This document shows, in pieces, positions 1-37,064 of a stretch of 64,000 nucleotides of DNA (position 1 is the stretch's first letter; each line of letters starts with the position of its first letter). The notes beneath the pieces are model-generated. The model saw only the letters and a list, made by a program, of their open reading frames with translations, had not been told where the DNA came from and did no database searches. Origin of the DNA: Balanoglossus misakiensis (Eukaryota; Animalia; Hemichordata); assembly GCA_040954595.2 (NCBI GenBank), contig CM082590.2, positions 6,634,001 to 6,698,000 on the forward strand, read 5' to 3'. The translations under genes and the position numbers were made by a program.

Positions 1-477
1 ACTATGGTTTTTCGAAAATCCAATATGGCCGCCATAATCTTCGACCAATCACAATGATCTTCGCAAACTTGATAGACATCAGTTAGGTGACCACATACAC
101 CAAACCCCGTGTCTCGGTTGTCACCGGTTCTGGAGAAGAAGATTTTTGAAATTTTGACCAGATTTCAGAAAAAAAATTGTAGCAAAAAAACTGCAACATT
201 GACAGCATAATTTCCAATTACAAAAATGATGGGCAGAAGGTAGTCTACCTGCACGCCAAATTTGAAGTCGATCTGACTTGTAGTTTCTGAGATCTGAGAT
301 TTGCATTTTTTCAGAAAATCCAAGATGGCCGCCAGGTCATGTGACTAATTAAAAATTCAAGGGTTCAATGCACGACTACTCATTGACCTTGACCACTGTA
401 GCAAGTTTCAGAAGTGTACCTGCAGTGGTCTCTGAGATCTAGAGCGACAAAGAATTGACACAAGAATAAAGAAAGAA

Positions 478-3400
478 TTAAAGCTGCAAGCAGCGTTGGG
501 GGGGCACAAGCGGTTCCCATGGTGACCAGCAAATGCCACGGCTGTATCTGCTGGAGATACCAAGATATGGGAAAGTAGGTCAAAGGTCACCTGAGGTCAC
601 CCCAAATTTCGGCAAAAAAATTGGACCCCATACTAGTCTAGATCCAACAAAAAACCAGACCCCTAGCCCTATTGGTTCACCTGCAATTAGGTATGCACAT
701 AATTAATGAGGTCTTGTGTAAGACTCCATTATGTGCTCAATACCCATAAAAGCCAGGGCTCTAACTGCTCTGGATGCTGAGATATGGGAAAGTAGATCAA
801 AGGTCACCCAAGGTCACCCAAAATTAGGGCATCAAATTTTGACCCCAGAGTGGCCCATGTCCAACTAAAACCAGACCTCTAGCCCTATTGGTTAGCCTGG
901 AATTAGATATGCAGAAAAATGATGTTTCAGAAATAGGTCAAGGGTCATTGCCAAAATTACAAAAATATTTGTGTCATGTCCTGGCAGCATTGGTACCCAT
1001 GTCCACAAAATTCATGACTGTGGTGCTTTTACAAGAGGAGGTATGGGGAATATGCATATATAATTAGTTGTTTTAAAACTGGGTCAAAGGTCATGTGAAA
1101 ATTGCCCCGAAAAATTGTGACAACTTCCGGTCATATGATGACTCATATCCAAAAAAAGAATTTCCGTGCTGTCAACATTTTGGCTACAAAACAGAATTTT
1201 CATTTTTCAATGGTTTTCCGAAAATCCAACATGGCCGCCATAATGATCGACCAATCACAGTGCGCTTCGCAAACTTGATAGACATAGGTTAGGTGACCAC
1301 ATACCCCGAATCCCGTGACTCGGCAATCGCTGGTTCTGGAGAAGAAGATTTTTAAAGTTTTAAGTAGTTTTTCAGAAAAACAGTTGTAGCAAAAAAAACG
1401 GTTTGTGTGACGTCATGATTTCAATTGGGTAAAATGATGGACGGAAGGTAGGCTACCTGCACACCAAATTTGAACTCGATCGGCCCAGTAGTTTTTGAGA
1501 AGGACTCGTTTAACGATTTTCAGGAAATCCAATATGGCCGCCAGGTCACGTGACTAATTAAATATTCACGAGCCACTGCACGTCTACTCATTGGCCCCTA
1601 TCACCCTATGAAGTTTCAGCCCCCTAGGTGCTGCGGTTTTCCTGATCTACCTGGCCGAATTTTGGGGAAGAAGAAGAAGAAGAAGAATAAATTAAAGCTG
1701 CAAGCAGCATTGTCCGGGCCCAAGCTCTATTATCTGATCTGATTATTAGATATGCACATAATTAATGAGTAGAAACATAATGCTGTGTTTTATCACATGA
1801 AATATCAAGGTTATATCTATGTTTGGTGTTGATATAATGTTAAGTAGGTCAAAGGTCACCCAGAGGTCACCCACAATTTGAGCAGAAAATTTTGACCCAT
1901 AGTGGTCCATGTCCAACAAAAACCAGACCTCTAGCCCTTTTGGTTAGCCCGGAATTAGGTATGCACATAAATAATGAGTTAAGCAGGTGTCACAGGTGAC
2001 CCAAAACTTTGGCTTTTCATTATGGCCCCATACCTCCAAACGCCAAGGCTGTATCTGGTGTGGATGTCGAGATATGCAAAAGTAGGTCAAAGGTCACCCG
2101 AGGTCACCCAACATTTGGGCAAAATATTTTGACCCCATACTGGTCCATGTATAACAAAAACAAAACCTCTAGGTCTATTGGTTCATCATTAATTAGGTAT
2201 GTGCATATTAAATGAGGTCAACAGAGGTCAAAGGGGTTATGAAAAGTAGCAAAATTTTTTGATCACATACAAATCCACATACATCAAAAACCAAACTTAT
2301 AGCCCTATTGGTTAGCCTGGAATTAGATATGCAGAAAAATGATGCGTCAAAAGTAGGTCAAAGGTCATTGCCAAAATTACCAAAATATTTATAGCTTATT
2401 CTTGGCATATGATGATTCATATCCATAAAAAGAATTTCTGTGCTATCAATTTTTAGGCTAGAAACGGAATTTTTAATTTTTAATCGTTGTTCACAAAATC
2501 CAATATGGCCGCCAAAATCTTCGACCAATCACAATGATCTTCGCAAACTTGATAGACATCAGTGTAGTGACCATACTCCCCAAATCTTGTGACTCGGTTA
2601 TCGCTGGTTCTTGAGAAGAAGATTTTTGAAATTTTACTAGGGTTTTTCGAAAATCCAATATGGCCGCCATAATCTTCGACCAATCACAATGATCTTCGCA
2701 AACTTGATAGACCTCAGTTTGGTGACCACATACCCCAAACCCAGTGTCTCGGTTATCACCGGTTCTGGAGAAGAAGATTTTTGAAATTTAAGCCAGATTT
2801 CAGAAAAAAAATTGTAGCAAAAAAACTGCAACTTTTTCAGCATAATTTCCAATTACAAAAATGATAAGCAGAAGGTAGTCTACCTGCACGCCAAATTTGA
2901 AGTCGATCTGACTTGTAGTTTCTGAGATCTGAGATTTGCATATTTTCAGAAAATCCAAGATGGCTGCCAGGTCATGTGACTAATTAGAAATTCAAGGGTT
3001 CAATGCACGACTACTCATTGACCTTGACCACTGTAGCAAGTTTCAGAAGTGTACCTGCAGTGGTGTCTGAGATCTAGAGCGACAAAGAATTGACACAAGA
3101 ATAAAGAAAGAAGAAAGAAAGAAAGATTAAAGCTGCAAGCAGCATTGTCCGGGCCCAAGCTCTATTATCTGATCTGATATTAGATATGCACATAATTAAT
3201 GAGTAGAAACATAATGCTGTTCTATCCCATGAAATATCAAGGTTATATCTATGTTTGGTGCTGATAAAGTGTTAAGTAGGTCAAAGGTCACCCAGAGGTC
3301 ACCCAACATTTGGGCAGAAAATTTTAATCCATAGTGGTCCATGTCCAACAAAAACCAGACCTCTAGCCCTTTTGGTTAGCCTATAATTAGGTATGCACAT

Positions 3401-4728
3401 AATTAATGAGTTAAGCAGGTGTCACAGGTGACCCAAAACTTTGGCTTTTCATTATGGCCCCATACCTCCAAACGCCAAGGCTGTATCTGCTGTGGATGTC
3501 GAGATATGCAAAAGTAGGTCAAAGGTCACCTGAGGTCACCCAACATTTGGGCAAAATATTTTGACCCCATACTGGTCCATGTATAACAAAAACAAAACCT
3601 CTAGGTCTATTGGTTCATCTGTAATTAGGTATGTACATATTTAATGAGGTCAGCAGAGGTCAAAGGGGTCATGAAAAGTAGCAAAATTTTTGGATCACAT
3701 ACAAATCGACATACATCAAAAACCAAACTTATAGCCCTATTGGTTAGCCTGGAATTAGATATGCAGAAAAATCATGCGTCAAAAGTAGGTCAAAGGTCAT
3801 TGCCAAAATTACCAAAATATTTATAGCTTATTCTTGTCATATGATGATTCATATCCATAAAAAGAATTTCTGTGCTATCACTTTTTAGGCTAGAAAGGGA
3901 ATTTTTACTTTTTAATTGTTTTTCACAAAATCCAATATGGCCGCCATAATCTTCGACCAATCACATTCCTCTTCGCAAACTTGATAGACATCTGTTTAAT
4001 GACCACACACACCAAATCTTGTGACTCAATTATCGCCGGTTCTTGAGAAGAAGATTTTTGAAATTTTACTAGGGTTTTTCGAAAATCCAATATGGCCGCC
4101 ATAATCTTCTACCAATCACAATGATCTTCGCAAACTTGATAGACCTGAGTTTGGTGACCACATACCCCAAACCGCGTGACTCGGTTATCGCCGGTTCTGG
4201 AGAAGAAGATTTTTGAAATTTTGACCAGATTTCTGAAAAACAACTGTAGCAAAAAAACTGCAACATTGACAGCAACATATCCAATTACAAAAATGATGGG
4301 CAGAAGGTACACTACCAGCACACCAAATTTGAAGTAAATCTGACTTGTAGTTTCTGAGATCTGAGATTTGCATTTTTTCAGAAAATCCAATATGGCCGCC
4401 ATGTCACGTGACTAATTAAAAATTCAAGAGTTCAATGCACGACTACCCATTGACCTTGATCACTGTAGCAAGTTTGAGAAGTGTACCTGCAGTGGTGTCT
4501 GAGATCTAGAGCGACAAAGAATTGACACAAGAATAAAGAAAGAAAGAAAGAAGAAAGAAAAACCCCAACGAAACCAATAGGGCCCAAGCGCTGGTATGCG
4601 CTTGGGCCCTAAAAAACCCCAACGAAACCAATAGGGCCCAAGCGCTGGCTTGCGCTTGGGCCCTAAGAAGAAATATTCCAACAATAACAATGGGGGCACA
4701 AGCCGCCTGAGGGCGCTTGTGCCCCCAA
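478..4728 (+). mobile_element. Non-autonomous Helentron subfamily B (478-1691 + 4667-4728), interrupted by two nested A copies
   Basis: Left subterminal repeat GGGGGCACAAGC. Diverged body ending in (GAA)n. Resumes at 4667 with GAAGAAATATTCC and the palindrome TGGGGGCACAAGC...GCTTGTGCCCCCA. Confidence 0.8.
3127..4612 (+). mobile_element. Intact non-autonomous Helentron (HINE-like), subfamily A, 1486 bp
   Basis: Complete uninterrupted copy from TTAAAGCTGCAAGCAGC...GGGCCCAAGC to (GAAA)n...GCTTGGGCCCTAA. No meaningful ORF. Confidence 0.85.
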
Positions 4729-7700
4729 AGAAAGAAGAAAGAAAGACAGAAAAACCCCAACGAAACCAATAGGGCCCAAGCGCTTGCTTGCGCTTGGGCC
4801 CTAAAGAAAGAAAGAAAGATTAAAGCTGCAAGCAGCATTGTCCGGGCCCAAGCTCTATTATCTGATCTGATTATTAGAATTGCACATAATTAATGAGTAG
4901 AAACATAATGCTGTGTTTTACCCCATAAAATATCAAGGTTATATCTATGCTTGGTGTTGATAAAGTGTTAAGTAGGTCAAAGGTCACCCAGAGGTCACCC
5001 ACAATTTGGCCAGAAAATTGTGACCCATAGTAGTCCATGTCCAACAAAAACCAGATATCTAGCCCTTTTGGTTAGCCCAGAATTAGGTATACACATAAAT
5101 AATGAGTAAGCAGGTGTCACAGGTGACCCAAAACTTTGGCTTTTCATTATGGCCCCATACCTCCAAACGCCAAGGCTGTATCTGCTGTGGATGTCAAGAT
5201 ATGCAAAAGTAGGTCAAAGGTCACCCGAGGTCACCCAACATTTGGGCAAAATAGTTTCACCCCATACTGGTCCATGTATAACAAAAACAAAACCTCTAGG
5301 TCTATTGGTTCACCTGTAATTAGGTATGTGCATATTTAATGAGGTCAGCAGAGGTCAAAGGGGTCATGAAAAGTAGCAACATTTTTTGATCACATACAAA
5401 TCCACATACATCAACAACCAAACTTATAGCCCTATCGGTTAGCCTGGAATTAGATATGCAGAAAAATGATGCGTCAAAAGTAGGTCAAAGGTCATTGCCA
5501 AAATTACCAAAATATTTATAGCTTATTCTTGGCATATGATGATTCATATCCATAAAAAGAATTTCTGTGCTATCAATTTTTAGGCTAGAAAGGGAATTTT
5601 TTCTTTTTAATCGTTTTTCACAAAATCCAATATGGCCGCCATAATCTTCGACCAATCACATTCCCCTTCGCAAACTTGTAAGACATCTGTTTAATGACCA
5701 CACACACCAAATCTTGTGACTCGGTTATCGCCGGTTCTTGAGAAGAAGATTTTTGAAATTTTACTAGGGTTTTTCGAAAATCCAATATGGCCGCCGTAAT
5801 CTTCGACCAATCACAATGATCTTCGCAAACTTGATAGACATCAGTTAGGTGACCACATACCCTAAACCCCGTGTCTCGGTTATCACCGGTTCTGGAGAAG
5901 AAGATTTTTGAAATTTAAGCCAGATTTCAGAAAAAAAATTGTAGCAAAAAAACTGCAACATTTACAGCAAAATATCCAATTACAAAAATGATGGGTAGAA
6001 GGTAGACTACCTGCACACCAAATTTGAAGTCGATCTGACTTGTAGTTTCTGAGATCTGAGATTTGCATTTTTTCAGAAAATCCAATATGGCCGCCAGGTC
6101 ACGTGACTAATTAAAAATTCACAGGTTCAATGCACGACTACTCATTGACCTTGACCACTGTAGCAAATTTCAGAAGTGTACCTGCAGCGGTGTCTGAGAT
6201 CTAGAGCGACAAAGAATTGACACAAGAATAAAGAAAGAAAGAAAGAAGAATTAAAGCTGCAAGCAGCATTGTCCGGGCCCAAGCTCTATTATCTGATCTG
6301 ATTATTAGATATGCACATAATTAATGAGTAGGAACATAATGCTGTGTTTTATCCCATGAAATATCAAGGTTATATCTATGTTTGGTGTTGATATAGTGTT
6401 AAGTAGGTCAAAGGTCACCCAGAGGTCACCCACAATTTGGGCAGAAAATTTTGACCCATAGTGGTCCATGTCCAACAAAAACCAGATCTCTAGCCCTTTT
6501 GGTTAGCCCGAAATTAGGTATGCACATAAATAATGAGTTAAGCAGGTGTCACAGGTGACCCAAAACTTTGGCTTTTCATTATGGCCCCATACCTCCAAAC
6601 GCCAAGGCTGTATCTGCTGTGGATGTCGAGATATGCAAAAGTAGGTCAAAGGTCATCCGAGGTCACCCAACATTTGGGCAAAAAAATTTGACCCAATACT
6701 GGTTCATGTCCAACAAAAACCAAACCTCTAGGTCTATTGGTTCATCTGTAATTAGGTATGCGCATATTTAATGAGGTCAGCAGAGGTCAAAGGGGTCATG
6801 ATAAGTAGCGAAATTTTTTGATCACATACAAATCCACATACATCAAAAACCAAAATCATAGCCCTATAGGTTAGCCTGGAATTAGATATGCAGAAAAAAA
6901 CGATGTGTCAAAAGTAGGTCAAAGGTCATTGCCAAAATTACCAAAATATTTGGGGTAGGTCCTGGCAGGGATGATACCAATGTGCACAAAAATCAGAACT
7001 CTGGTACATTTAGAACACGTAGTATGAGCTATATATGCATATATGCAGGTTCTTAAAAAAGTAGGTCAAAGGTCATGTGAAAATATTTGCAACATATTCT
7101 AGTCATATCACGACTCATATCCATAAAAAGAATTGGTATGCTATCTATTTTTAGACTAGAAAAATGATTTCTTAATTTTCGCTGGTTTTTACAAAATCCA
7201 ATATGGCCGCCATAATCTTCGACCAATCACAACGCTCTTCGCAAACTTGATAGACATCAGTTAGGTGATGTCATACCCTAAATCCCATGACTCGGTTATT
7301 GCCGGTTCTGGAGAAGAAGATTTTTGAAGATTTTACTGTACTTTTTCGAAAATCCAATATGGCGGCCAAAGTCACGTGACCGCTCAGGATTTTATTGTCA
7401 AACTTTGAAGGGCAGAGGACATGTGTACCATACACCAAATTTGAACTTGATTGGCCCTGTGGTTTTTGAGAAGAAGCCATTTAAAGATTTTCAGAAAATC
7501 CAATATGGCCGCCAGGTCACGTGACTAATTAAATATTCACAAGCCACTGCACATCTACTCATTGACCTTGACCACTGTAGCAAGTTTGAGAAGTGTACCT
7601 GTAGCCGTTTCAGAGATCCAGGAGAGCAAAGATTGACATAAGAATAAAGAAAGAATTAAAGCTGCAAGCAGCATTGTCCGGGCCCAAGCTCTATTATCTG

Positions 7701-7937
7701 ATCTGATTATTAGATATGCACGTAATTAATGAGTAGAAACATAATGCAGTGTTTTATCCCATGAAATATCAAGGTTATATCTATGTTTGGTGCTGATATA
7801 GTGTTAAGTAGGTCAAAGGTCACCCAGGGGTCACCCACAATTTGGGCAGAATATTTTGACCCATAGTGGTCAATGTCCAACAAAAACCAGACCTCTAGCC
7901 CTTTTGGTTAACCCGGAATTAGGTATGCACATAAATA

Positions 7938-8653
7938 ATGCGTAAAGCAGGTGTCACAGGTGACCCCACAACTTTGGCTTTTCATTATGGCCCCATACCT
8001 CCAAACGCCAAGGTTGTACCTGCTTTGGATGCTGAGATATGCAAAAGTAGGTCAAAGGTCATCTGAGGTCACCCAAAATTTGGGTAGAAAATTTTGACCC
8101 GTAGTGGTCCATGTATAACAAAAACAAAACCTCTAGGTCTATTGGTTCATCTGTAATTAGGTATGTGCATATTTAATGAGTAAAGCAGGTGTCACAGGTG
8201 ACCCAAAACTTTGGCTTTTCATTATGGCCCCATACCTCCAAACGCCAAGGCTGTATCTGGTGTGGATGTCGAGATATGCAAAAGTAGGTCAAAGGTCACC
8301 CGAGGTCACCCAACATTTGGGCAAAATATTTTGACCCCATACTGGTCCATGTATAACAAAAACAAAACCTCTAGGTCTATTGGTTCATCTGTAATTAGGT
8401 ATGTGCATATTTAATGAGTAAAGCAGGTGTCACAGGTGACCCAAAACTTTGGCTTTTCATTATGGCCCCATACCTCCAAACGCCAAGGCTGTATCTGGTG
8501 TGGATGTCGAGATATGCAAAAGTAGGTCAAAGGTCACCCGAGGTCACCCAACATTTGGGCAAAATATTTTGACCCCATACTGGTCCATGTATAACAAAAA
8601 CAAAACCTCTAGGTCTATTGGTTCATCTGTAATTAGGTATATGCATATTTAAT
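7938..8653 (+). repeat. Internal ~238-bp module triplicated within one non-autonomous copy
   Basis: GTAAAGCAGGTGTCACAGGTGACCC recurs at ~7942, 8180 and 8418. The ORF track shows near-identical peptides at 8211 and 8449 (period 238). Confidence 0.85.
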
Positions 8654-9579
8654 GAGGTCAGCAGAGGTCAAAGGGGTCATGAAAAGTAGCAAAATTTTTT
8701 GATCACATACAAATCCACATACATCTAAAACCAAACTTATAGCCCTATTGGTTAGCCAGGAATTAGATATGCAGAAATAATAATGCATGATAAGTAGGTC
8801 AAAGGTCATTGCCAAAATTACCAAAATATTTACAGCTTATTCTTGGCATATGATGATTCATATCCATAAAAAGAATTTCTGTGCTATCAATTTTTAGGCT
8901 AGAAACAGAATTTTTACTTTTTAATCGTTGTTCACAAAATCCAATATGGCCGCCAAAATCTTCGACCAATCACAATGATCTTCGCAAACTTGATAGACAT
9001 CTGTTTAATGACCACACACACCAAATCTTGTGACTCGGTTATCGCCGGTTCTTGAGAAGAAGATTTTTGAAATTTTACTAGGGTTTTTCGAAAATCCAAT
9101 ATGGCCGCCATAATCTTCCACCAATCACAATGATCTTCGCAAACTTGATAGACCTCAGTTTGGTGACCACATACCCCAAACCGCGTGACTCGGTTATCGC
9201 CGGTTCTGGAGAAGAAGATTTTTGAAATTTTGACCAGATTTCAGAAAAACAACTGTAGCAAAAAAACTGCAACATTGACAGCAAAATATCCAATTACAAA
9301 AATGATGGGTAGAAGGTAGACTACCTGCACACCAAGTTTGAAGTCGATCTGACTTGTAGTTTCTGAGATCTGAGATTTGCATTTTTTCAGAAAATCTAAT
9401 ATGGCCGCCAGGTCACGTGACTAATTAAAAATTCAAGGGTTCAATGCACATCTACTCATTGACCTTGACCACTGTAGCAAGTTTGAGAAGTGTACCTGCA
9501 GTGGTGTCTGAGATCTAGAGCGACAAAGAATTGACACAAGAATAAAGAAAGAAGAAAGAAGAAAGAAGGAAAGACAGAA

Positions 9580-11080
9580 TTAAAGCTGCAAGCAGCATTG
9601 TCCGGGCCCAAGCTCTATTATCTGATCTGATTATTAGATATGCACATAATTAATGAGTAGAAACATAATGCTGTGTTTTATCCCATGAAATATCAAGGTT
9701 ATATCTAGGTTTGGTGTTGACATAGTATTAAGTAGGTCAAAGGTCACCCAGAGGTCACCAATTATTTGGGCAGAATATTTTGACCCATAGTGGTCTATGT
9801 CCAACAAAAACCAGATCTCTAGCCCTTTTGGTTAGCCCGGAATTAGGTATGCACATAAATAATGAGTTAAGCAGGTGTCACAGGTGACCCAAAACTTTGG
9901 CTTTTCATTATGGCCCTATACCTCCAAACGCCAAGGCTGTATCTGCTGTGGATTTCAAGATATGCCAAAGTAGGTCAAAGGTCACCCGAGGTCACCCAAC
10001 ATTTGGGCAAAAAATTCTGACCCCATACTGGTCCATGTATAACAAAAACAACACCTCTAGGTCTATTGGTTCATCATTAATTAGGTATGCGCATATTTAA
10101 TGAGGTCACCAGAGGTTAAAGGGGTCATGAAAACTAGCAAAATTTTTTGATCACATACAAATCCACATACATCAAAAACCAAACTTATAGCCCTATTGGT
10201 TAGCCTGGAATTAGATATGCAGAAAAATGATTCGTCAAAAGTAGGTCAAAGGTCATTGCCAAAATTACCAAAATATTTATAGCTTATTCTTGTCATATGA
10301 TGATTCATATCCATAAAAAGAATTTCTGTGCTATCAATTTTTAGGCTAGAAAAGGAATTTTTACTTTTTAATCGTTTTTCACAAAATCCAATATGGCCGC
10401 CGTAATCTTCGACCAATCACATTCCCCTTCGCAAACTTGATAGACATCTCTTTAATGACCACACACACCAAATCTTGTGACTCGGTTATCGCCCGTTCTG
10501 GAGAAGAAGATTTTTGAATTTTTACTATGGTTTTTCGAAAATCCAATATGGCCGCCATAATCTTCGACCAATCACAATGATCTTCGCAAACTTGATAGAC
10601 ATCTGTTAGGTGACCACATACCCCAAACGGCGTGACTTGGTTATTGCCGGTTCTGGAGAAGAAGATTTTTGAAATTTAAGCCAGATTTCAGAAAAAAAAT
10701 TGTAGCAAAAAAACTGCAACATTGTCAGCATAATTTCCAATTACAAAAATGATGGGTAGAAGGTAGTCTACCAGCATGCCAAATTTGAAGTTGATCTGAC
10801 TTGTAGTTTCTGAGATCTGAGATTTGCATTTTTTTAGAAAATCCAATATGGCCGCCAGGTCACGTGACTAATTAAAAATTCACAGGTTCAATGCACGACT
10901 ACTCATTGACCTTGACCACTGTAGCAAGTTTCAGAAGTGTACCTGCAGCGGTGTCTGAGATCTAGAGCGACAAAGAATTGACACAAGAATAAAGAAAGAA
11001 AGAAAGAAGAAAGAAGGAAAGACAGAAAAACCCCAACGAAACCAATAGGGCCCAAGCGCTGGTATGCGCTTGGGCCCTAA
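9580..11080 (+). mobile_element. Intact non-autonomous Helentron, subfamily A, 1501 bp
   Basis: Both termini present. The flanks GACAGAA and AAACCCC rejoin to give the intact GACAGAAAAACCCC of the host copy. Confidence 0.85.
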
Positions 11081-14000
11081 AAACCCCAACGAAACCAATA
11101 GGGCCCAAGCGCTGGTATGCGCTTGGGCCCTAATTAAAGCTGCAAGCAGCATTGTCCGGGCCCAAGCTCTATTATCTGATCTGATTATTAGATATGCACA
11201 TAATTAATGAGTAGAAACATAATGCTGTGTTTTATCCCATGAAATATCAAGGTTATATCTAGGTTTGGTGTTGACATAGTATTAAGTAGGTCAAAGGTCA
11301 CCCAGAGGTCACCAATTATTTGGGCAGAATATTTTGACCCATAGTGGTCTATGTCCAACAAAAACCAGATCTCTAGCCCTTTTGGTTAGCCCGGAATTAG
11401 GTATGCACATAAATAATGAGTTAAGCAGGTGTCACAGGTGACCCAAAACTTTGGCTTTTCATTATGGCCCTATACCTCCAAACGCCAAGGCTGTATCTGC
11501 TGTGGATTTCAAGATATGCCAAAGTAGGTCAAAGGTCACCCGAGGTCACCCAACATTTGGGCAAAAAATTCTGACCCCATACTGGTCCATGTATAACAAA
11601 AACAACACCTCTAGGTCTATTGGTTCATCATTAATTAGGTATGCGCATATTTAATGAGGTCACCAGAGGTTAAAGGGGTCATGAAAACTAGCAAAATTTT
11701 TTGATCACATACAAATCCACATACATCAAAAACCAAACTTATAGCCCTATTGGTTAGCCTGGAATTAGATATGCAGAAAAATGATTCGTCAAAAGTAGGT
11801 CAAAGGTCATTGCCAAAATTACCAAAATATTTATAGCTTATTCTTGTCATATGATGATTCATATCCATAAAAAGAATTTCTGTGCTATCAATTTTTAGGC
11901 TAGAAAAGGAATTTTTACTTTTTAATCGTTTTTCACAAAATCCAATATGGCCGCCGTAATCTTCGACCAATCACATTCCCCTTCGCAAACTTGATAGACA
12001 TCTCTTTAATGACCACACACACCAAATCTTGTGACTCGGTTATCGCCCGTTCTGGAGAAGAAGATTTTTGAATTTTTACTATGGTTTTTCGAAAATCCAA
12101 TATGGCCGCCATAATCTTCGACCAATCACAATGATCTTCGCAAACTTGATAGACATCTGTTAGGTGACCACATACCCCAAACGGCGTGACTTGGTTATTG
12201 CCGGTTCTGGAGAAGAAGATTTTTGAAATTTAAGCCAGATTTCAGAAAAAAAATTGTAGCAAAAAAACTGCAACATTGTCAGCATAATTTCCAATTACAA
12301 AAATGATGGGTAGAAGGTAGTCTACCAGCATGCCAAATTTGAAGTTGATCTGACTTGTAGTTTCTGAGATCTGAGATTTGCATTTTTTTAGAAAATCCAA
12401 TATGGCCGCCAGGTCACGTGACTAATTAAAAATTCACAGGTTCAATGCACGACTACTCATTGACCTTGACCACTGTAGCAAGTTTCAGAAGTGTACCTGC
12501 AGCGGTGTCTGAGATCTAGAGCGACAAAGAATTGACACAAGAATAAAGAAAGAAAGAAAGAAGAAAGAAGGAAAGACAGATTAAAGCTGCAAGCAGCATT
12601 GTCCGGGCCCAAGCTGTATTATCTGATCAGATTATTAGATATGCACATAATTAATGAGTAGAAACATAATGCTGTGTTTTATCCCATGAAATATCAAGGT
12701 TATATCTATGTTTGGTGTTGATATAGTGTTAAGTAGGTCAAAGGTCACCCAGAGGTCACCCACAATTTGGGCAGAAAATTTTGACCCATAGTGGTCCATG
12801 TCCAACAAAAACCAGACCTCTATCCCTTTTGGTTAGCCCGGAATTAGGTATGCACATAAATAATGAGTTAAGCAGGTGTCACAGGTGACCCAAAACTTTG
12901 GCTTTTCATTATGGCCCCATACCTCCAAACGCCAAGGCTGTATCTGCTGTGGATGTCGAGATATGCAAAAGTAGGTCAAAGGTCATCCGAGGTCACCCAA
13001 CATTTGGGCAAAAAATTTGACCCAATACTGGTTCATGTCCAACAAAAACCAAACCTCTAGGTCTATTGGTTCATCTGTAATTAGGTATGCGCATATTTAA
13101 TGAGGTCAGCAGAGGTCAAAGGGGTCATGAAAAGTAGCGAAATTTGTTGATCGCATACAAATCCACATACATCAAAAACCAAACTTATAGCCCTATTGGT
13201 TAGCCTGGAATTAGATATGCAGAAAAATGATGCGTCAAAAAGTAGGTCAAAGGTCATTGCCAAAATTACCAAAATATTTATAGCTTATTCTTGGCATATG
13301 ATGATTCATATCCATAAAAAGAATTTCTGTGCTATCAATTTTTAGGCTAGAAAGGGAATTTTTACTTTTTAATCGTTTTTCACAAAATCCAATATGGCCG
13401 CCATAATCTTCGACCAATCACATTCATCTTCGCAAACTTGATAGACATCTGTTTAATGACCACACACACCAAATCTTGTGACTCAGTTATCGCCGGTTCT
13501 TGAGAAGAAGATTTTTGAAATTTTACTAGGGTTTTTCGAAAATCCAATATGGCCGCCAAAATCTTCGACCAATCACAATGATCTTCGCAAACTTGATAGA
13601 CCTCAGTTTGGTGACCACATACCCCAAACCGCGTGACTCGGTTATCGCCGGTTCTGGAGAAGAAGATTTTTGAAATTTTGACCAGATTTCAGAAAAACAA
13701 CTGTAGCAAAAAAACTGCAACATTGACAGCATAATTTCCAATTACAAAAATGTTTGCCAGAAGGTAGTCTACCTGCACGCCAAATTTGAAGTCGATCTGA
13801 CTTGTAGTTTCTGAGATCTGAGATTTGCATTTTTTCAGAAAATCCAAGATGGCCGCCAGGTCATGTGACTAATTAAAAATTCATGGGTTCAATGCACGAC
13901 TACTCATTGACCTTGACCACTGTAGCAAGTTTGAGAACTGTACCTGCAGTGGTGTCTGAGATCTAGAGCGACAAAGAAATGACAGAAGAATAAAGAAAGA

Positions 14001-17486: not shown

Positions 17487-17512
17487 ATTTTGGCTACCAA
17501 AGAGTTTTCAAG
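17487..17512 (+). other. Putative non-coding 5' micro-exon of the transposase transcript
   Basis: TTTTCTTGACAG, 26 nt, then AAG|GTGAGT: strong acceptor and donor. The ORF ATG at 19160 directly follows an acceptor-like TTGCTTTGTTCCAG. Confidence 0.45.
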
Positions 17513-25100: not shown

Positions 25101-26845
25101 AGTTTGGTAACCTTCAAATTTTGATAATAGATGAGATTTCTATGGTAGACAAAAAGTTACTGTACTATGTTCATGGAAGACTGCGACAAATCAAACAGTC
25201 ATCGGCTGAGTCACCATTTGGGAATGTGTGTGTTATTGCTGTGGGTGATTTTTATCAACTCCCGCCTGTAAAAGCAAGTCCACTGTGCATAGACCGTGAA
25301 TCCGTCAATCTGTGGAATGACAATTTCAGTATGGTAGAATTAACTGAAATAATGAGACAGAAAGACTGTGCATTTGCAGAGGCATTAAATCGAGTAAGAG
25401 TTCACAAAAAGGGGGACACACTAAATGCTGGTGATGTGGCAATGTTACAAAAGTGTGTTACTGGTGAAACATCTGAGGCAATGCATGTTTTTGCTACAAA
25501 TGCAGAGGTTAATAGCTGTAATGTTGAAATGCTTCATTCTCAATGTTCTGATCCTGTGTGTATTGAAGCAGAAGATTTTAGCAGAAATCCTAAAAGTGGA
25601 CGACTAGAAAAAAAGGAAGGTCACCATGTCAAAGTGTTCAGGACAACTTTGCCAAAGACTCTTACTCTAGCTGTTGGTGCACGAGTCCAATTGACGCATA
25701 ACATTGATGTGGCTGATGGTTTGGTGAATGGCGTTTTTGGGACAGTATGTCACATTGCAGTAAAACCAAATGAAAAATTCCCAGCTGCCATTTATGTTGT
25801 ATTTGATAATGAGAAAGTTGGCCAAGGATTGCGTAAAAAGAAGCCTATAACTATATCTGACCTTCCAGTAAACAGTACCCCTATAGAACCTCAGGAAATG
25901 TCTGTTGCAAGTAATGGTGGTATTAGGAGGCAGTTTCCTTTAAAACTAGCTTGGGCATGTACAGTGCATAAGGTACAGGGATTGACAGTTGATAAAGCTG
26001 TTGTCAGTTTAAAGAAGATGTTTGCACCAGGACAGGCATATGTGGCATTGAGTCGGGTGACAACATTAGATGGTCTCATTATTAATGACTTTAACAAATC
26101 ATCCATATATTGCAATGAAAAGGTCCAAGAAGCCCTGGAAACAATGCCAAAATTTCTCCCCAAGTGTACTCAGAAAGAACACAGTAATTATACATGCTCA
26201 TTTGTATTGCATAATGTGGAGGGACTTGTCAATCACATTAAAGATATTTGCAATGACAGTGAATATTTGGAAGCAGACTTCATTTGTTTGACGGAAACTT
26301 GGTTATCTGAAAAAGGAACACATTGTAATTTGCAATTGAGCGGATTTGAATTCAATCACCAACCACGATCTCAATCCTACAATCAATTTGATAGAAATAC
26401 ATCAAGTCTACAGTTGCAACAGCGGGGTGGTGTTGGAGTCTATAGCAAACTATGTAATGATTTTGAAATTTTGCATTTGGGTGTGTGTAATTTGGAATGT
26501 ATTTCATTTTATGTCACTAAAATCAATGTTACAGTAGCTGTAGTTTATAGACCACCATCATACAAAGCAGAGGTATTCAAAAAAAGTTTGGTTTGTTTGG
26601 TGAAAGCAATGGAAAAATACCCAGGAGGAAAACTGATCATGGGTGATTTCAATGAAGATATCTTGTCCCGGTCATCACTTGTAAAGTTCATGGAAGATCA
26701 TGGTTTCAGACAATTTGTTAGCGAACCAACTACAGAAGCTAATACATTGATTGATCATGTGTATGTGAAAGGAATAAAATATGTGACAGTAAATGTGGTA
26801 CCAAAATACTTCAGCTTTCATGAAGCAATAAGCATCAAAATATAA
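19160..26845 (+). CDS. Helentron transposase: OTU protease-like + Zn-finger + HUH/Y2 Rep + PIF1-family SF1B helicase + APE/EEP endonuclease
   Basis: Uninterrupted ORF (track starts at TTG 19151; first ATG at 19160). OTU: IIGDGNCFFRSLS (19937), WATETEI, NHYEVV (20291). Zn: CSVCHRRLF and CHTC. Rep: PTWFCSFSAAD, YRVEFQQRGSPHTHCLFW (23087-23140), YIVSYISKAE. Helicase: GGAGTGKS (24863), APTGVAA, IIDEISMV, GDFYQLPPV, MRQKD, TVHKVQGLT, GQAYVALSRV. EN: HNVEGL, DFICLTETWL, GGVGVY, VYRPP, IMGDFNED, LIDHVYV, SFH. Confidence 0.97.
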   Translation: MPRSRYWRKKRSQKNEDTVVSEDPVLLKNRIAIEHKEGPALSKNRNRNEYKEGPALSKNRNRNEFKEGPALSKNRNRNEYKEGPALSKNRNRNEFKEGPALSKNRNRNEYKEGPALSKNRNRNEYKEGPALSKNRNRNEFKEGPALSKNRNMDKIRKSDRENESTKVNNEIFETENQSVDKTEGSNEILQEHSLDNDSSDDLYIGSGTGDSVYSFSPLTFDVCEQLCCKFDIVDKNNIDIFNKLGSVTIGDPCNYKSIIGDGNCFFRSLSYCISGTERNHGVIRTAIVNHLKANEEVYSGWVRLDGYTSVADYIAKSRMDHLGTWATETEILATTNLFNVNIFVYSFDSWWKHSCNIINKNNVDRGVGIYLNHRNRNHYEVVECVKTPQLENCHCTHIDCNEVIPIENVTGECMGVTDNECSKQIGLKKEFHLDDVFATQCFAPVRNKKRGRAIGERLKKKLRREKYESERGKLNELNVPSSLKSSKASKQYERYQTNSEYRDNIKSDSRKRYHEDVLYRENKKRRLAGRYDHDLVYREVQKTVCAEQCLAKYEKVPLYREHKKSESAAQCVDKYKKDQTFREQKKRQSAEQCVDKYKKDETFREQKKRQCVDKYKKDQTFREQKKRQNAALCVDKYKKDQTFREQKKRQCVDKYKKDQTFREQKKRQSAAQCVDKYKKDQTFREQKKRQSAAQCVHKYKKDLEFREQKKRQTAAVFADKFQNDQKFREHKKSQNAAQFLDKYNRDEEFQNWTKKKCLERYQQDHVYKQTVLQRRRTERKVTKIEKGNIERVIIDFRNQISVGPNCVCSVCHRRLFRKQVIVCKMDNYVSKGGLCEMNANKCITQEYVHNCSELCIVDCPLKSSAASKLWICHTCHSKLLRAEMPVQAAANNLDVKPIPDELKCLNSLEQHLIALHIPFMKMMALPRGGQNGVHGPVVCVPSNIEKATSILPRGELEDQMIKVKLKRKLSYKGCYQYQFVNKGHIQNALEYLQKNNKWYNDVKFNLTWENTLEKTEEKSNGESNENTEEKLLDTEGNDVASDTENGNEPDGDTNGIFMDTCFQPVDIGQDILDYHFDDITCVAPGEDNKPVRVLMEKFNEAKCFPVIFPTGSPTFHDDREVKITIGRYLQSRLMNASNRFAKSTDYIFYAQYRSELDQVVSNVSIALRKGTANACGKKVTSDVLTDGDSLREILKCDEGYKFLKPVRGTPPYWQATQKDIFAMIRQLGIPTWFCSFSAADLRWKEVIETILREEGDTRNAEDLDWCEKCGILRRNPVTAARMFDHRFHCFLNEVIMSPASPIGKIKDYFYRVEFQQRGSPHTHCLFWVENAPKVDKDSDEDVVEFVDRYVTCEMPSIEEDEVLHEIVKTVQKHSSRHSKSCKKKGTTCRFNFPRPPSNKTFICHPSVSIDTGIEVTDDDQCKDDQMSTSLESEFENSLLELDDTVLVQKKARQILERVWTCLCDKEKQIDTIDDLFNAVGISQEMFEQANAILAKKTSVVLKREPSDVWVNQYNTNLLRCWNANMDIQFVVDAYACVVYIVSYISKAEREMGLLLEHAQKEANKEGNMDAKSAMKELGGVYLHNREISAQEAVYRVCGLKLKQSSRKVQFIPTGENQIKMSLPLAAIQKKMKGGDLDEEEIWMNSIVDRYKNRPNGVDFDNMCLAKFCSEYRVVSKSEMKNVSNEKRHSPIVKLKNDVGYMQKRSISDGAVVRYARFSVTKCPEKHYGSILQLFLPYRTESQLKPSGFESFEDFYCLGAVKCGTASLEKVKMIVDANKALFETEADAIDAAGQFLDENGHLEDAWAQICPENELERLECIEEGKKCCDDDPVDDSDIPDLVKKPKGDDCHVELSNSMKKYEVEAMCRSLNKKQAEVFYTVRKWCLDKSNGKNPEPFYLFVTGGAGTGKSHLIKSIYHEAKRILARAMPDVDGISIALTAPTGVAAFNIQGTTLHHIFSIAVDSKLPYQPLREEKLNTLRCKFGNLQILIIDEISMVDKKLLYYVHGRLRQIKQSSAESPFGNVCVIAVGDFYQLPPVKASPLCIDRESVNLWNDNFSMVELTEIMRQKDCAFAEALNRVRVHKKGDTLNAGDVAMLQKCVTGETSEAMHVFATNAEVNSCNVEMLHSQCSDPVCIEAEDFSRNPKSGRLEKKEGHHVKVFRTTLPKTLTLAVGARVQLTHNIDVADGLVNGVFGTVCHIAVKPNEKFPAAIYVVFDNEKVGQGLRKKKPITISDLPVNSTPIEPQEMSVASNGGIRRQFPLKLAWACTVHKVQGLTVDKAVVSLKKMFAPGQAYVALSRVTTLDGLIINDFNKSSIYCNEKVQEALETMPKFLPKCTQKEHSNYTCSFVLHNVEGLVNHIKDICNDSEYLEADFICLTETWLSEKGTHCNLQLSGFEFNHQPRSQSYNQFDRNTSSLQLQQRGGVGVYSKLCNDFEILHLGVCNLECISFYVTKINVTVAVVYRPPSYKAEVFKKSLVCLVKAMEKYPGGKLIMGDFNEDILSRSSLVKFMEDHGFRQFVSEPTTEANTLIDHVYVKGIKYVTVNVVPKYFSFHEAISIKI
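19259..19612 (+). repeat. In-frame 45-bp coding minisatellite x8 (E[HYF]KEGPALSKNRNRN)
   Basis: GAAT(A/T)CAAAGAGGGGCCTGCCCTCTCTAAAAACAGGAATAGAAAT repeated almost perfectly. Confidence 0.95.
20860..21420 (+). repeat. In-frame 66/54-bp coding repeat (CVDKYKKDQTFREQKKRQ[SAAQ])
   Basis: TGTGTTGACAAGTACAAAAAAGATCAGACATTCCGAGAACAAAAGAAGAGAC repeated as 22-aa and 18-aa variants, degenerating towards both sides. Confidence 0.93.
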
Positions 26846-29800
26846 TTATTTAGACTTGTGTTTTGAAATAAAATCAGTGTGATTAGAAAAATAAAGATAT
26901 AACCCACCGCGAGGAATAACCTTATTCAGGTACATGATTCAATAACGGCCTTTGTTACGGAAAAGCTGAGTGATGGTACCAGACCTTGTTGCTTCACCAG
27001 GGCAAAGTGTGTGCTTCTGGTGGTAGGACATGACCGGGCAAGTGATCTGATTTGGCGGGCGACTTGTGCTTGTCGCTGCGCTCCTTGCCTGGTCATACTG
27101 CCAGTAGCACACTATAGTGCACAGCGATGAGGTCTGGGAGTGAGACTAGATAAAAACAAAACTACCCAGCAAGAGGTTAAATGTTCTTATACTGGCTCCT
27201 ATGTTAAATCAATTCAAATACTTAATTGTCAACAATAGCTGTGAAACTTGTCTTCATGAGGCTCATCAATCAGTTATAAATTCAGGATAAATGACATTTT
27301 GATAACAATGTATATACACAAATAAGACAACATGATGAAAAGCATATCTGCAGCACTGGATAAAACTAAAAAAGGATGAAACTTGAATTTAAAATAGATA
27401 TAGCTGTTGGCAAAAGTATTTTCCAAAGGAATTGTTTCCTGTTAAATTGATCTCTGTAGCATGTCCATAATTGGAGATTTTAAAAGAATTTTTAAAGTGG
27501 GTAGTCGGGATCTGTAGCAATAGTGTGTGCATGTCGTTCAACTGCCTTATGATATAATCTGAGAAAGCTGACATCATCATTTTACATAACATGTATTTAC
27601 CTTACCGCAAAATAATATTGACCACCAGATTGCTTTTGATAAGGTTACGATAAGGTAGCGATACACCAACTGCAAATAATTTGAAGCAAATTAACTACAG
27701 AAGCTAATAAATTGATTGATCTTGTGTCTGAGAAAGGAATAGAAAGTGTGACGGTAAATGTTGTACCAAAATACTTTAGCTTTCATGAAGCAATAAGGAT
27801 CAAAATATTAATTTAGAGTTGTGTTTTGAAATAACATAAGTGTTATTAGAAAAATAAAGATATAACCCATCACGAGGAAAAACCTCATTCACGTACATGA
27901 TTTAATAATGGCCTTTGTTACGGAAAAGCTGAGTGATGGTACCAGACCTTGTTGCTTCACCAGGGCAAAGTGTGTGCTTCTGGTGGTAGGACATGACCGG
28001 GCAAGTGATCTGATTTGGCGGGCGACTTGTGCTTGTCGCTGCGCTCCTTGCCTGGTCATACTGCCAGTAGCACACTATAGTGCACAGCGATGAGGTCTGG
28101 GAGTGAGACTAGATAAAAACAAAACTACCCAGCAAGAGGTTAAATGTTCTTATACTGGCTCCTATGTTAAATCAATTCAAATACTTAATTGTCAACAATA
28201 GCTGTGAAACTTGTCTTCATGAGGCTCATCAATCAGTTATAAATTCAGGATAAATGACATTTTGATAACAATGTATATACACAAATAAGACAACATGATG
28301 AAAAGCACATCTGCAGCACTGGATAAAACTAAAAAAGGATGAAACTTGAATTTAAAATAGATATAGCTGTTGGCAAAAGTATTTTCCAAAGGAATTGTTT
28401 CTTGTTAAATTGATCTCTGTAGCATGTCCATAATTGGAGATTTTAAAAGAATTTTTAAAGTGGGTAGTCGGGATCTGTAGCAACAGTGTGTGCATGTCGT
28501 TCAACTGCCTTATGATATAATCTGAGAAAGCTGACATCATCATTTTACATAACATGTATTTACCTTACCGCAAAATAATATTGACCACCAGATTGCTTTT
28601 GATAAGGTTACGATAAGGTAGCGATACACCAACTGCAAATAATTTGAAGCAAATTAACTACAGAAGGTAATAAATTGATTGATCTTGTGTCTGAGAAAGG
28701 AATATAAAGTGTGACGGTAAATGTTGTACCAAAATACTTTAGCTTTCATGAAGCAATAAGGATCAAAATATTAATTTAGAGTTGTGTTTTGAAATAACAT
28801 AAGTGTTATTAGAAAAATAAAGATATAACCCATCACGAGGAAAAACCTCATTCACGTACATGATTTAATAACGGCCTTTGTTACGGAAAAGCTGAGTGAT
28901 GGTACCAGACCTTGTTGCTTCACCAGGGCAAAGTGTGTGCTTCTGGTGGTAGGACATGACCGGGCAAGTGATCTGATTTGGCGGGCGACTTGTGCTTGTC
29001 GCTGCGCTCCTTGCCTGGTCATACTGCCAGTAGCACACTATAGTGCACAGCGATGAGGTCTGGGAGTGAGACTAGATAAAAACAAAACTACCCAGCAAGA
29101 GGTTAAATGTTCTTATACTGGCTCCTATGTTAAATCAATTCAAATACTTAATTGTCAACAATAGCTGTGAAACTTGTCTTCATGAGGCTCATCAATCAGT
29201 TATAAATTCAGGATAAATGACATTTTGATAACAATGTGTATACACAAATAAGACAACATGATGAAAAGCACATCTGCAGCACTGGATAAAACTAAAAAAG
29301 GATGAAACTTGAATTTAAAATAGATATAGCTGTTGGCAAAAGTATTTTCCAAAGGAATTGTTTCCTGTTAAATTGATCTCTGTAGCATGTCCATAATTGG
29401 AGATTTTAAAAGAATTTTTAAAGTGGGTAGTCGGGATCTGTAGCAATAGTGTGTGCATGTCGTTCAACTGCCTTATGATATAATCTGAGAAAGCTGACAT
29501 CATCATTTTACATAACATGTATTTACCTTACCGCAAAATAATATTGACCACCAGATTGCTTTTGATAAGGTTACGATAAGGTAGCGATACACCAACTGCA
29601 AATAATTTGAAGCAAATTAACTACAGAAGGTAATAAATTGATTGATCTTGTGTCTGAGAAAGGAATATAAAGTGTGACGGTAAATGTTGTACCAAAATAC
29701 TTTAGCTTTCATGAAGCAATAAGGATCAAAATATTAATTTAGAGTTGTGTTTTGAAATAACATAAGTGTTATTAGAAAAATAAAGATATAACCCATCACG

Positions 29801-31534
29801 AGGAAAAACCTCATTCACGTACATGATTTAATAATGGCCTTTGTTACGGAAAAGCTGAGTGATGGTACCAGACCTTGTTGCTTCACCAGGGCAAAGTGTG
29901 TGCTTCTGGTGGTAGGACATGACCGGGCAAGTGATCTGATTTGGCGGGCGACTTGTGCTTGTCGCTGCGCTCCTTGCCTGGTCATACTGCCAGTAGCACA
30001 CTATAGTGCACAGCGATGAGGTCTGGGAGTGAGACTAGATAAAAACAAAACTACCCAGCAAGAGGTTAAATGTTCTTATACTGGCTCCTATGTTAAATCA
30101 ATTCAAATACTTAATTGTCAACAATAGCTGTGAAACTTGTCTTCATGAGGCTCATCAATCAGTTATAAATTCAGGATAAATGACATTTTGATAACAATGT
30201 ATATACACAAATAAGACAACATGATGAAAAGCACATCTGCAGCACTGGATAAAACTAAAAAAGGATGAAACTTGAATTTAAAATAGATATAGCTGTTGGC
30301 AAAAGTATTTTCCAAAGGAATTGTTTCCTGTTAAATTGATCTCTGTAGCATGTCCATAATTGGAGATTTTAAAAGAATTTTTAAAGTGGGTAGTCGGGAT
30401 CTGTAGCAATAGTGTGTGCATGTCGTTCAACTGCCTTATGATATAATCTGAGAAAGCTGACATCATCATTTTACATAACATGTATTTACCTTACCGCAAA
30501 ATAATATTGACCACCAGATTGCTTTTGATAAGGTTACGATAAGGTAGCGATACACCAACTGCAAATAATTTGAAGCAAATTAACTACAGAAGCTAATAAA
30601 TTGATTGATCTTGTGTCTGAGAAAGGAATAGAAAGTGTGACGGTAAATGTTGTACCAAAATACTTTAGCTTTCATGAAGCAATAAGGATCAAAATATTAA
30701 TTTAGAGTTGTGTTTTGAAATAACATAAGTGTTATTATAAAAATAAAGATATAACCCGTCACGAGGAAAAACCTCATTCACGTACATGATTTAATAATGG
30801 CCTTTGTTACGGAAAAGCTGAGTGATGGTACCAGACCTTGTTGCTTCACCAGGGCAAAGTGTGTGCTTCTGGTGGTAGGACATGACCGGGCAAGTGATCT
30901 GATTTGGCGGGCGACTTGTGCTTGTCGCTGCGCTCCTTGCCTGGTCATACTGCCAGTAGCACACTATGGTGCACAGCGATGAGGTCTGGGAGTGAGACTA
31001 GATAAAAACAAAACTACCCAGCAAGAGGTTAAATGTTCTTATACTGGCTCCTATGTTAAATCAATTCAAATACTTAATTGTCAACAATAGCTGTGAAACT
31101 TGTCTTCATGAGGCTCATCAATCAGTTATAAATTCAGGATAAATGACATTTTGATAACAATGTATATACACAAATAAGACAACATGATGAAAAGCACATC
31201 TGCAGCACTGGATAAAACTAAAAAAGGATGAAACTTGAATTTAAAATAGATATAGCTGTTGGGAAAAGTATTTTCCAAAGGAATTGTTTCCTGTTAAATT
31301 GATCTCTGTAGCATGTCCATAATTGGAGATTTTAAAAGAATTTTTAAAGTGGGTAGTCGGGATCTGTAGCAATAGTGTGTGCATGTCGTTCAACTGCCTT
31401 ATGATATAATCTGAGAAAGCTGACATCAACATTTTACATAACATGTATTTACCTTACCGCAAAATAATATTGACCACCAGATTGCTTTTGATAAGGTTAC
31501 GATAAGGTAGCGATACACCAACTGCAAATAATTT
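26710..31534 (+). repeat. 963-bp tandem repeat x5, starting within the 3' end of the transposase ORF
   Basis: Near-identical ORFs at 27389, 28352, 29315, 30278 and 31241 (period 963). Each unit begins with a degenerate copy of the last ~40 codons of the EN domain. Confidence 0.95.
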
Positions 31535-31787
31535 GTCTAACATGTTGTGATTTAACTTTCAGAAAAAGATATAAACTCTGGGGGAGGACAGGGTAATTAA
31601 GACTAGGTTGTCTACACGCCTTAGTGAGTTGTCTGTCTGTCTGTCTGTCTGAAGATAAACTCAGGCGAAGGATTGAGTAATTTAAGACAGGCTGCCTGGC
31701 TGTCATAATGTTATATCTGTCTGTATGTCTTTGTCATGTATGCACTGGCATATGTACATTTGTAACATATGTACATGTGTATATGCA

Positions 31788-31825
<38 letters not shown>

Positions 31826-31886
31826 CATGCAGGCATGTATGTATGTATGTATGTATGTATGTATGTATGTATGTATGTATGTATGT
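31788..31886. repeat. (TG)n(TATG)n compound microsatellite
   Basis: Directly visible. Confidence 0.95.
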
Positions 31887-31975
31887 AGTCATTTTCTATG
31901 TATATATAAAATCTATGTTAAATATAAAAAGTATTTTAGAACAATTTACATTGCTGCTTGGTATGATATAATTAC

Positions 31976-35200: not shown

Positions 35201-36601
35201 TTCGCTTGGAATTATATATGCGAATAATTAATGGGGTAAATTGTGGGATTCGGTGAGGTGTTCCATCCCTCCAAATGCTAAGCCTGTACCTGCAGTGGAT
35301 GCCAAGATATGAGAAAGTAGGTAAAAGGTCACTGAGGTCACCCAAAATTCTTTGACGAAATACTGGTCCATGTCCAAAAAAAACAAAAACTCTAGATCTA
35401 TTAGTTCGTCTGTAATTAGGTATGCGCATACTTAATGAGTTAAGCAGGTGTCACAGGTGACCCAAAACTTTGGCTTTTCATTATGGCCCCATACCTCCAA
35501 ACGCCAAGGCTGTATCTGCTGTGGATGTCGAGATATGCAAAAGTAGGTCAAAGGTCACCCGAGGTCATCCAACATTTGGGCAAAATATTTTGACCCCATA
35601 CTGATCCATGTCCAGAAAAAAACAAACCTCTAGGTCATTTGGTTCATCTGTAATTAGGTATGCGCATATTTAATGAGGTCAGCAGAGGTCAAAGGGGTCA
35701 TGAAAAGTAGCAAAAATTTTTGATCACATACAAAACCACATACATCAAAAACCAAACTTATAGCCCTATTGGTTAGCCTGGAATTAGATATGCAGAAAAA
35801 TGATGCGTCAAAAGTAGGTCAAAGGTCATTGCCAAAATTACCAAAATATTTATAGCTTATTCTTGTCATATGATGATTCATATCCATAAAAAGAATTTCT
35901 GTGCTATCAATTTTTAGGCTAGAAACAGAATTTTTACTTTTTAATCGTTGTTCACAAAATCCAATATGGCCGCCAAAATCTTCGACCAATCACAATGATC
36001 TTCGCAAACTTGATAGACATCTGTTTAATGACCACACACACCAAATCTTGTGACTCGGTTATCGCCGGTTCTTGAGAAGAAGATTTTTGAAATTTTACTA
36101 GGGTTTTTCGAAAATCCAATATGGCCGCCATAATCTTCGACCAATCACAATGATCTTCGCAAACTTGATAGACCTCAGTTTGGTGACCACATACCCCAAA
36201 CCGCGTGACTCGGTTATCGCCGGTTCTGGAGAAGAAGATTTTTGAAATTTTGACCAGATTTCAGAAAAACAACTGTAGCAAAAAAACTGCAACATTGACA
36301 GCAAAATATCCAATTACAAAAATGATGGGTAGAAGGTAGACTACCTGCACACCAAGTTTGAAGTCGATCTGACTTGTAGTTTCTGAGATCTGAGATTTGC
36401 ATTTTTTCAGAAAATCTAATATGGCCGCCAGGTCACGTGACTAATTAAAAATTCAAGGGTTCAATGCACATCTACTCATTGACCTTGACCACTGTAGCAA
36501 GTTTGAGAAGTGTACCTGCAGTGGTGTCTGAGATCTAGAGCGACAAAGAATTGACACAAGAATAAAGAAAGAAAGAAGAAAGAAGAAAGAAGGAAAGACA
36601 G

Positions 36602-37064
36602 AAAAACCCCAACGAAACCAATAGGGCCCAAGCGCTGGTATGCGCTTGGGCCCTAAAAAACCCCAACGAAACCAATAGGGCCCAAGCGCTGGCTTGCGCT
36701 TGGGCCCTAAAAAACCCCAACGAAACCAATAGGGCCCAAGCGCTGGTATGCGCTTGGGCCCTAAAGAAAAACCCCAACGAAACCAATAGGGCCCAAGCGC
36801 TGGTATGCGCTTGGGCCCTAAAAAACCCCAACGAAACCAATAGGGCCCAAGCGCTGGTATGCGCTTGGGCCCTAAAGAAAGAAAGCAAGCAAGAAAGAAA
36901 AATTCCAACGAAACCAATAGGGCCCAAGCGCTTGCGTGCGCTTGGGCCCTAAATATTCCAACAATAACAATGGGGGCACAAGCCGCCTGAGGGCGCTTGT
37001 GCCCCCAAAAATTCCAACAATAACAATGGGGGCACAAGCCGCCTGAGGGCGCTTGTGCCCCCAA
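36602..37064 (+). repeat. Stack of eight Helentron right ends (6 type A, 2 type B hairpins)
   Basis: Six copies of CCAACGAAACCAATAGGGCCCAAGCGC-N6-GCGCTTGGGCCCTAA followed by two copies of TTCCAACAATAACAATGGGGGCACAAGCCGCCTGAGGGCGCTTGTGCCCCCAA. Confidence 0.95.

Follow-up and report, generated by a model that had tools for sequence, protein, structure and literature searches.

Helentrons and their non-autonomous relatives HINE and DINE-1 insert in TT without target duplication, encode a Rep–helicase–endonuclease protein with an OTU domain and give rise to short deletion-derivative copies (Thomas, Vadnagara and Pritham 2014, PMC4067079; PMC7492417). In Fusarium, copies of the Helitron2 element FoHeli1 repeat their first 31–85 nt, composites transpose, and self-insertion, deduced from the doubled ends plus a single nested case, was proposed as the cause (Chellapan et al. 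2016, PMC5148889); HELIANO identified an autonomous Xenopus HLE2 element, HelenXT233, with two left termini (LTSs) (PMC11417382). Lepidopteran MINE-1 helitrons are reported to insert at GAAA microsatellites, the review passage on them naming the host microsatellite as target and making no mention of self-nesting (PMC3812793). Here we describe a 64,000-nt stretch of the hemichordate Balanoglossus misakiensis (assembly GCA_040954595.2, contig CM082590.2, positions 6,634,001 to 6,698,000, forward strand; hereafter the window), in which positions 1–37,064, an apparent satellite of ~37 kb, are a block of Helentron-family elements lying one inside another. The nest of this family and its autonomous partner is real and was recently built. 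Compared with FoHeli1, whose doubled 5′ termini span 31–85 nt as against 54–76 nt here, the locus has up to eight stacked ends, bodies and left ends still in place, two interleaved subfamilies and an autonomous copy within the nest. For Helentrons, HINEs, DINE-1 and the oyster element Cg_HINE, clustering and tandem arrays have been reported, whereas this locus shows serial nesting at one intra-element site, and the arrangements described in the relevant parts of PMC11934779, PMC13085455 and PMC4224331 are other than this nest. A literature search that excluded subscription journals, Repbase and Dfam found no published deep serial Helentron nest. The class and self-insertion were already known or proposed; depth, preserved intermediates and a defined hot spot are new. 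We hypothesise, at roughly even odds (about 0.5), that the nest grew by serial insertion, the transposase being attracted by a resident copy's hairpin end and cutting the adjacent A-rich tract.

All family termini in the nest face one way. The 17-nt left-end motif TTAAAGCTGCAAGCAGC occurs ten times on the plus strand (478, 1692, 3127, 4820, 6251, 7656, 9580, 11134, 12581 and 14020), the copy at 478 being of B type and the other nine of A type; the whole window holds no copy on the minus strand and no extra copy with up to three mismatches. Fourteen right-end hairpins share this orientation, namely ten of A type (4580, 4634, 4772, 11048, 11101, 36624, 36678, 36732, 36789 and 36843), one variant A′ (36920) and three of B type (4692, 36972 and 37028). 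The hairpin at 4772 is the end of a copy, A0, whose left end precedes the window, which leaves 13. No other family terminus was found on either strand of the window at up to three mismatches, save four weak B-like matches in unrelated DNA, and the terminus coordinates given in the first-pass annotation, an earlier reading of this sequence, all check (ten left ends, hairpins, one strand).

Subterminal inverted repeats (subTIRs) of 10 bp in A and 13 bp in B lie 2 nt and ~24 nt from the ends. Their sequence differs between the types yet pairs end to end within each (covariation), and lengths and distances fall within the ranges given for the asymmetric terminal inverted repeats (TIRs) of Helitron2 (8–15 bp, 0–2 nt from the 5′ end and 20–30 nt from the 3′ end; PMC3627910); the A-type repeat is shorter than the 12–15 bp of mite HINEs. 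For the right-end hairpin, which includes the subTIR, the folding energies are −18.7 kcal/mol (z −5.6) and −20.9 kcal/mol (z −6.6), with 0/200 shuffles as stable; all ten left ends carry a 5-bp palindrome, whose fold is no more stable than that of shuffled sequence (z 1.24 and −0.16). Short copies carry 155-nt and 238-nt internal tandem repeats, have only chance open reading frames (ORFs) over the end stacks and end in termini identical to those of the element at 14020–36656. Read on the minus strand, each copy runs from a terminal subTIR in a hairpin through a microsatellite, internal repeats and the second subTIR to a short palindrome, the same layout from 5′ subTIR to 3′ palindrome as in Helentrons, HINEs and DINE-1 (PMC4067079) and in Cg_HINE (PMC7492417). 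Insertion was likewise in TT without target duplication: every junction lies in an A run on the plus strand, and excised tails are restored at 8/9. By these sequence features, the nest elements are Helentrons (HLE2) with HINE/DINE-1-like non-autonomous copies, and the Helentron/HINE identity proposed earlier agrees with domains, Rep motif 2, subTIRs and layout. A Kolobok or piggyBac identity (the left end starts with TTAA) was ruled out, as the elements have no TIR and most right ends no TTAA. The parts of the nest, all on the plus strand, are as follows.

1–477 (+): 3′ body and first part of the tail of copy A0, 94–96% identical to other A body ends; left end before the window.
478–1691 (+): B-type non-autonomous copy (B478), left end and body, in the tail of A0; B-type subTIR, 71–79% like A bodies.
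1692–3126 (+): left end and body of an A copy that lies in the (GAA)n tail of B478; placed by termini, pairing and the restored B tail.
3127–4612 (+): complete uninterrupted A copy in the 5-A run of 1692; sequence, termini and pairing.
4613–4804 (+): right ends of 1692 (A), 478 (B) and A0 (A), displaced and stacked in this order; type order and A-run arithmetic.
4805–4819 (+): tail remnant of a further upstream copy, from sequence; its partner is the end at 36822 or else A′.
4820–6250 (+): A copy, left end and body; termini and body comparison.
6251–7655 (+): copy whose 5′ half is of A type and whose 3′ half has diverged (78% to other A copies); right end either 36765–36821 or lost.
7656–9579 (+): A copy derived almost exactly from the autonomous element by internal deletion, or a recombinant of it; match at both ends.
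9580–11080 (+): complete uninterrupted A copy in the 5-A run of 7656; termini and pairing.
11081–11133 (+): right end of 7656 in displaced position, with zero host bases between it and the left end of 11134; termini and pairing.
11134–12580 (+): A copy identical to 9580 over 1447 nt (0 mismatches); restored tail equals the tail of 9580.
12581–14019 (+): A copy in the 5-A run of 11134; termini and pairing.
14020–36656 (+): autonomous Helentron of 22.6 kb, the innermost copy, bounded by a single left and a single right end, both of A type.
26712–31535 (+): five tandem ~963-nt units inside the autonomous element, the first beginning in the last 130 nt of its ORF.
36657–36875 (+): four displaced A-type right ends, of 12581 and 11134, then of 6251 and 4820 or of 4820 and an upstream copy.
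36876–37064 (+): variant A′ end and two B ends without a left end in the window; termini.

Unique DNA begins at 37065, and this flank stands at single-copy depth in runs X1 and X2; no empty-site allele at 37065 occurs among the contig matches listed. Pairs of A bodies are generally 92–96% similar, neighbours (92–95%) being no closer than distant copies except for 9580/11134, and the bodies are mosaic, the nearest relative shifting along the copy. The 3′ half of 6251 belongs to a repeated subfamily, with an exact contig depth of 2609 versus 30.7 for the unique flank in X1.

Nine of the ten left ends are preceded by an interrupted A-rich family tail and only one directly by a right end, in line with the earlier claim of serial nesting as opposed to a head-to-tail concatemer. 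Since the right ends of 3127, 9580 and 14020 close their own uninterrupted bodies (3/14), the other 11 entered a pairing test in which nine left tail remainders were joined with eleven right remainders, allowing two A's per element. Last-in-first-out pairing rebuilt a grammatical tail at eight of the nine interrupted tails, and 2,088 of 907,200 downstream pairings (0.23%) score at least 8, a figure that serves as a guide only, the tail grammar having been written with the tails already in view. Inside-out excision, proposed in the first-pass annotation as a check, thus restores 8/9 tails and fails solely at 6250/36822 (6 A), the junction already flagged there. Within the first stack the B end is the third to close, the place predicted by the B left end, and the restored tail of B478 matches the loose end of a contig in run X1, which may come from the same sample as the assembly or be its source. 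A C–T loop variant occurs in three right ends assigned to A0, 1692 and 12581, which share two private single-nucleotide polymorphisms in their bodies; of 84 trios, 5 match this agreement when 455 nt are compared and 3 when the comparison is confined to the last 150–300 nt, so it lends the pairing modest support.

A parse shifted by one end competes with this one. Closing 4820 with the end at 36768 recreates the intact tail of 3127 exactly, and joining the remnant 4805–4819 to the end at 36822 yields a 5-A run; the 6-A anomaly disappears, and 6251 is left without a right end, which may be missing, possibly lost by slippage between identical 54-nt ends. The exact bracket balance claimed earlier is not supported by this comparison. 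The unshifted parse costs one extra A and a 22-nt tail, compared with 33–48 nt in three intact copies; an extra A is allowed, because T number varies at Helentron insertions (PMC4067079). Upstream of the window the unshifted parse implies the left-end series B, B, A′, A and the shifted parse B, B, A′, A, A. A 9/9 pairing, with 6251 closed by A′, was rejected because it crosses brackets, which is impossible by simple nesting. Levels with both ends in the window number four to five, so that 'at least 8 deep', as first proposed, overstates what lies within it; a depth of eight would follow from the eight stacked right ends if the corresponding left ends lie upstream, and in Fusarium stacked 5′ termini are reported to move as a unit (PMC5148889). 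With at least one local duplication (9580/11134) and possibly one lost end superimposed on it, the nest is a partial and not an exact log of insertions.

The core of the nest, overlooked in the first-pass annotation, is an autonomous element (14020–36656) with one left and one right end and no other family terminus inside. An unbroken ORF at 19160–26845 (+) of 2561 aa combines OTU, DUF6570 (PF20209, 8.9e-21), Rep (Helitron_like_N, PF14214, 2.4e-30), PIF1 helicase (PF05970, 2.4e-26) and apurinic/apyrimidinic (AP)-type endonuclease (PF03372, 1.2e-07) domains, and motifs that look catalytic are present. Rep motif 2, YRVEFQQRGSPHTH at residue 1310, has S between G and P and F before it, the pattern diagnostic of Helentrons, for which S between G and P and F/Y-x-R before it is the published rule (PMC4067079); DUF6570 is a reported HLE2 marker (PMC11417382). 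The protein search gave 918 matches among 4129 candidates; among the 120 listed, the closest relatives are abalone, acorn worm and hagfish records at 62–64% identity, the top ones with the same domain set. Relative to the DINE-1 orientation the ORF is reversed, as has been reported for Helentron-Da-40 and Helitron-1_DR (PMC4067079, PMC3627910). Copy 7656 matches 14020–14544 at 99.6% over its first 525 nt and differs by one mismatch from the right part of the large element over its last 600 nt before the tail; because it matches both ends, it ties them to one element and is itself a derivative of that element. The last four of the ~963-nt units are 4–7 bases off the second, and each carries the ORF end again. 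Splice-like donor and acceptor signals 5′ of the transposase start codon (16308, 17486–17513, 19159) suggest a transcript with a spliced 5′ leader.

All ten insertions fell in a tail or at a hairpin terminus, and those within tails lie 54–76 nt from the hairpin terminus, which bears out the proposed landing pad ~50–80 bp from the element's own right end. A single 5-A run beside the hairpin took four or five of the ten, while A or T runs of 5–8 nt stayed unused 154 times in nine bodies, 102 times in the interior and 150 times in the flank. If all AA sites were used equally, the probability that each of the ten insertions hit a tail would be ~1e-12, or 1e-11 to 2e-8 with a profile from 47 related-element flanks. 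The accounts of Helentron target choice that we found speak only of a preference for TT or T-rich DNA. Considering these positions, we propose the following hypothetical sequence of steps, in which (i) the transposase would be attracted by the hairpin end of a resident copy; (ii) the C-terminal AP-type endonuclease would nick the short A-rich tract next to the hairpin on its T-rich strand; and (iii) the new copy would displace the 54–76-nt hairpin end of its host and supply a fresh site. Each junction would then represent an insertion event guided by a resident end. Because every insertion would displace a hairpin end and add a site, right ends would stack on one side and bodies on the other.

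Relatives in other assemblies bear on the role of the hairpin. Scanning metagenome contigs by pattern yielded 62 matches spread over 60 loci, of which L004, L016 and L061 were judged to be chance and dropped, leaving 59; L047/L054 and L046/L048 are each probably a single site in two assemblies. They are relatives by termini alone: the body of the window element aligned at one of the 62 loci, in the tail only. Seven of the 59 related left ends abut a right end within 0–3 nt and three lie in a tail of their own family, of (TAA)n/(GAA)n type (10/59 in total); in L005 a left end comes directly after a stack of two right ends (540–760). Right-end stacks, right-to-left abutments or own-tail insertions are also visible along the whole of L062 and in L017, L030, L047 and L054. 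In viral contigs, two matches to the 17-nt left end were taken as chance, as the longer pattern was absent from both.

Serial insertion could also have proceeded by a simple preference for purine-rich, A-rich DNA of the (GAAA)n kind with no role for the hairpin, a possible account that we rate as only somewhat less probable than guidance by the resident end. MINE-1 is reported to behave in this way (PMC3812793), and 49 of the 59 related left ends lie in unrelated A-rich DNA. On the other hand, 11134 sits at a hairpin terminus with no microsatellite before it, as do the 7/59 abutting related left ends, longer A runs in bodies remained unused, and a 31–85-nt end duplication of the same kind occurs in Fusarium (PMC5148889). 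Guidance by the hairpin end is nevertheless weakened by several observations. Apart from the 49/59, two contigs of X3 have left ends in unrelated A-rich DNA. Very A-rich AA sites (at least 10 A in 15 nt) number 14 in the tail and 5 in the body, which raises the chance probability to ~0.05, so that the claimed excess of own-tail insertions over A-tract abundance stands under uniform AA use and shrinks to this value with very A-rich sites. Every in-tail site lies in a (GAAA)/(GAA) tract, and the interior and flank have no such tract to serve as a control; insertions may also be lacking from the interior because of its youth and from the flank because of constraint. Every parse is either unbalanced or retains an anomaly, no contig bridging a nest junction was found among the pieces listed (31-letter rule), and right-to-left abutments can also be produced by rolling-circle concatemers. 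The element thus has a strong internal hot spot, yet is not confined to it.

Growth mainly by recombination, through unequal exchange between bodies or 54-nt ends, or by composite rolling-circle concatemers from one or two founding nested insertions, seems unlikely. Copies 9580 and 11134 are identical and lie end to end with no host base, the bodies are mosaic, the best-fitting parse is one end short, and composite Helitrons with several 5′ termini are known (PMC5148889). However, the distance between junction and end varies (54 to 76 nt), reverse order is kept both in the B/A succession and in the loop variants, neighbours are no more alike than distant copies, and the 22.6-kb autonomous copy occupies the same type of site. 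Some local copying nonetheless took place: since 9580 equals 11134 over 1447 nt and 11134 abuts the end of 7656 without a host base, a local copy step occurred. Duplication of a whole 'left-body-right-right' unit fits poorly, as the 5-A end-to-end junction at 11079 is not repeated in the far stack. Copy 12581 and the autonomous element, lying inside 11134, would be very recent, unless conversion made 9580 and 11134 identical. An assembly artefact of a satellite, to which the 1447-nt exact duplicate, the identical 54-nt ends and the absence of stack-spanning contigs among those listed might point, is very improbable: copies differ by 4–8% and junctions are distinct, end-to-end and end-to-left junction types occur as loose ends in X1 and X2, and the same types occur in unrelated assemblies.

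We tentatively extend hairpin-guided insertion beyond this locus, at somewhat less than even odds: Helentron transposases might home to the hairpin end of their own family and integrate within ~80 nt as a clade-wide rule, from this hemichordate to related elements in other animals and perhaps including fungal Helitron2, building tens of kilobases of satellite-like DNA and an ordered record of the subfamilies that were active. Such a rule would explain doubled 5′ termini in fungi and frogs and would provide a route to satellite-like arrays other than unequal exchange or concatemer formation; blocks of this kind are prone to mis-annotation as satellite. Alu elements inserting into the A tails of older Alus, and self-inserting DIRS-1 and Zepp, likewise carry their own target and keep one orientation, but these are retrotransposons that use reverse transcription, with target duplications in the case of Alu. 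The nest offers a ready donor, enzyme and target for separating end-guided from sequence-guided integration.

The remainder of the window contains other repeats and an open frame. A separate head-to-tail array of about seven 1.35–1.43-kb units, 83–93% alike, occupies 38395–48062 and is split by two elements. At 41410–41866 lies a miniature inverted-repeat transposable element, presumably hAT-like; its inverted repeats are long, and 8 bp of target appear to be duplicated. The other, at 41986–43616, has TIRs and TTAA on both sides, and we take it to be Kolobok- or piggyBac-like; its first 11 bases, including TTAA, look like the left end of the Helentron, a similarity that is probably fortuitous. 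A 275-aa open frame at 51048–51875 (−) has no Pfam match and, we presume, resembles the last exon of a pyridoxal-phosphate-dependent amino-acid decarboxylase, and a 73/79-nt tandem repeat of ~16 copies spans 54912–56094.

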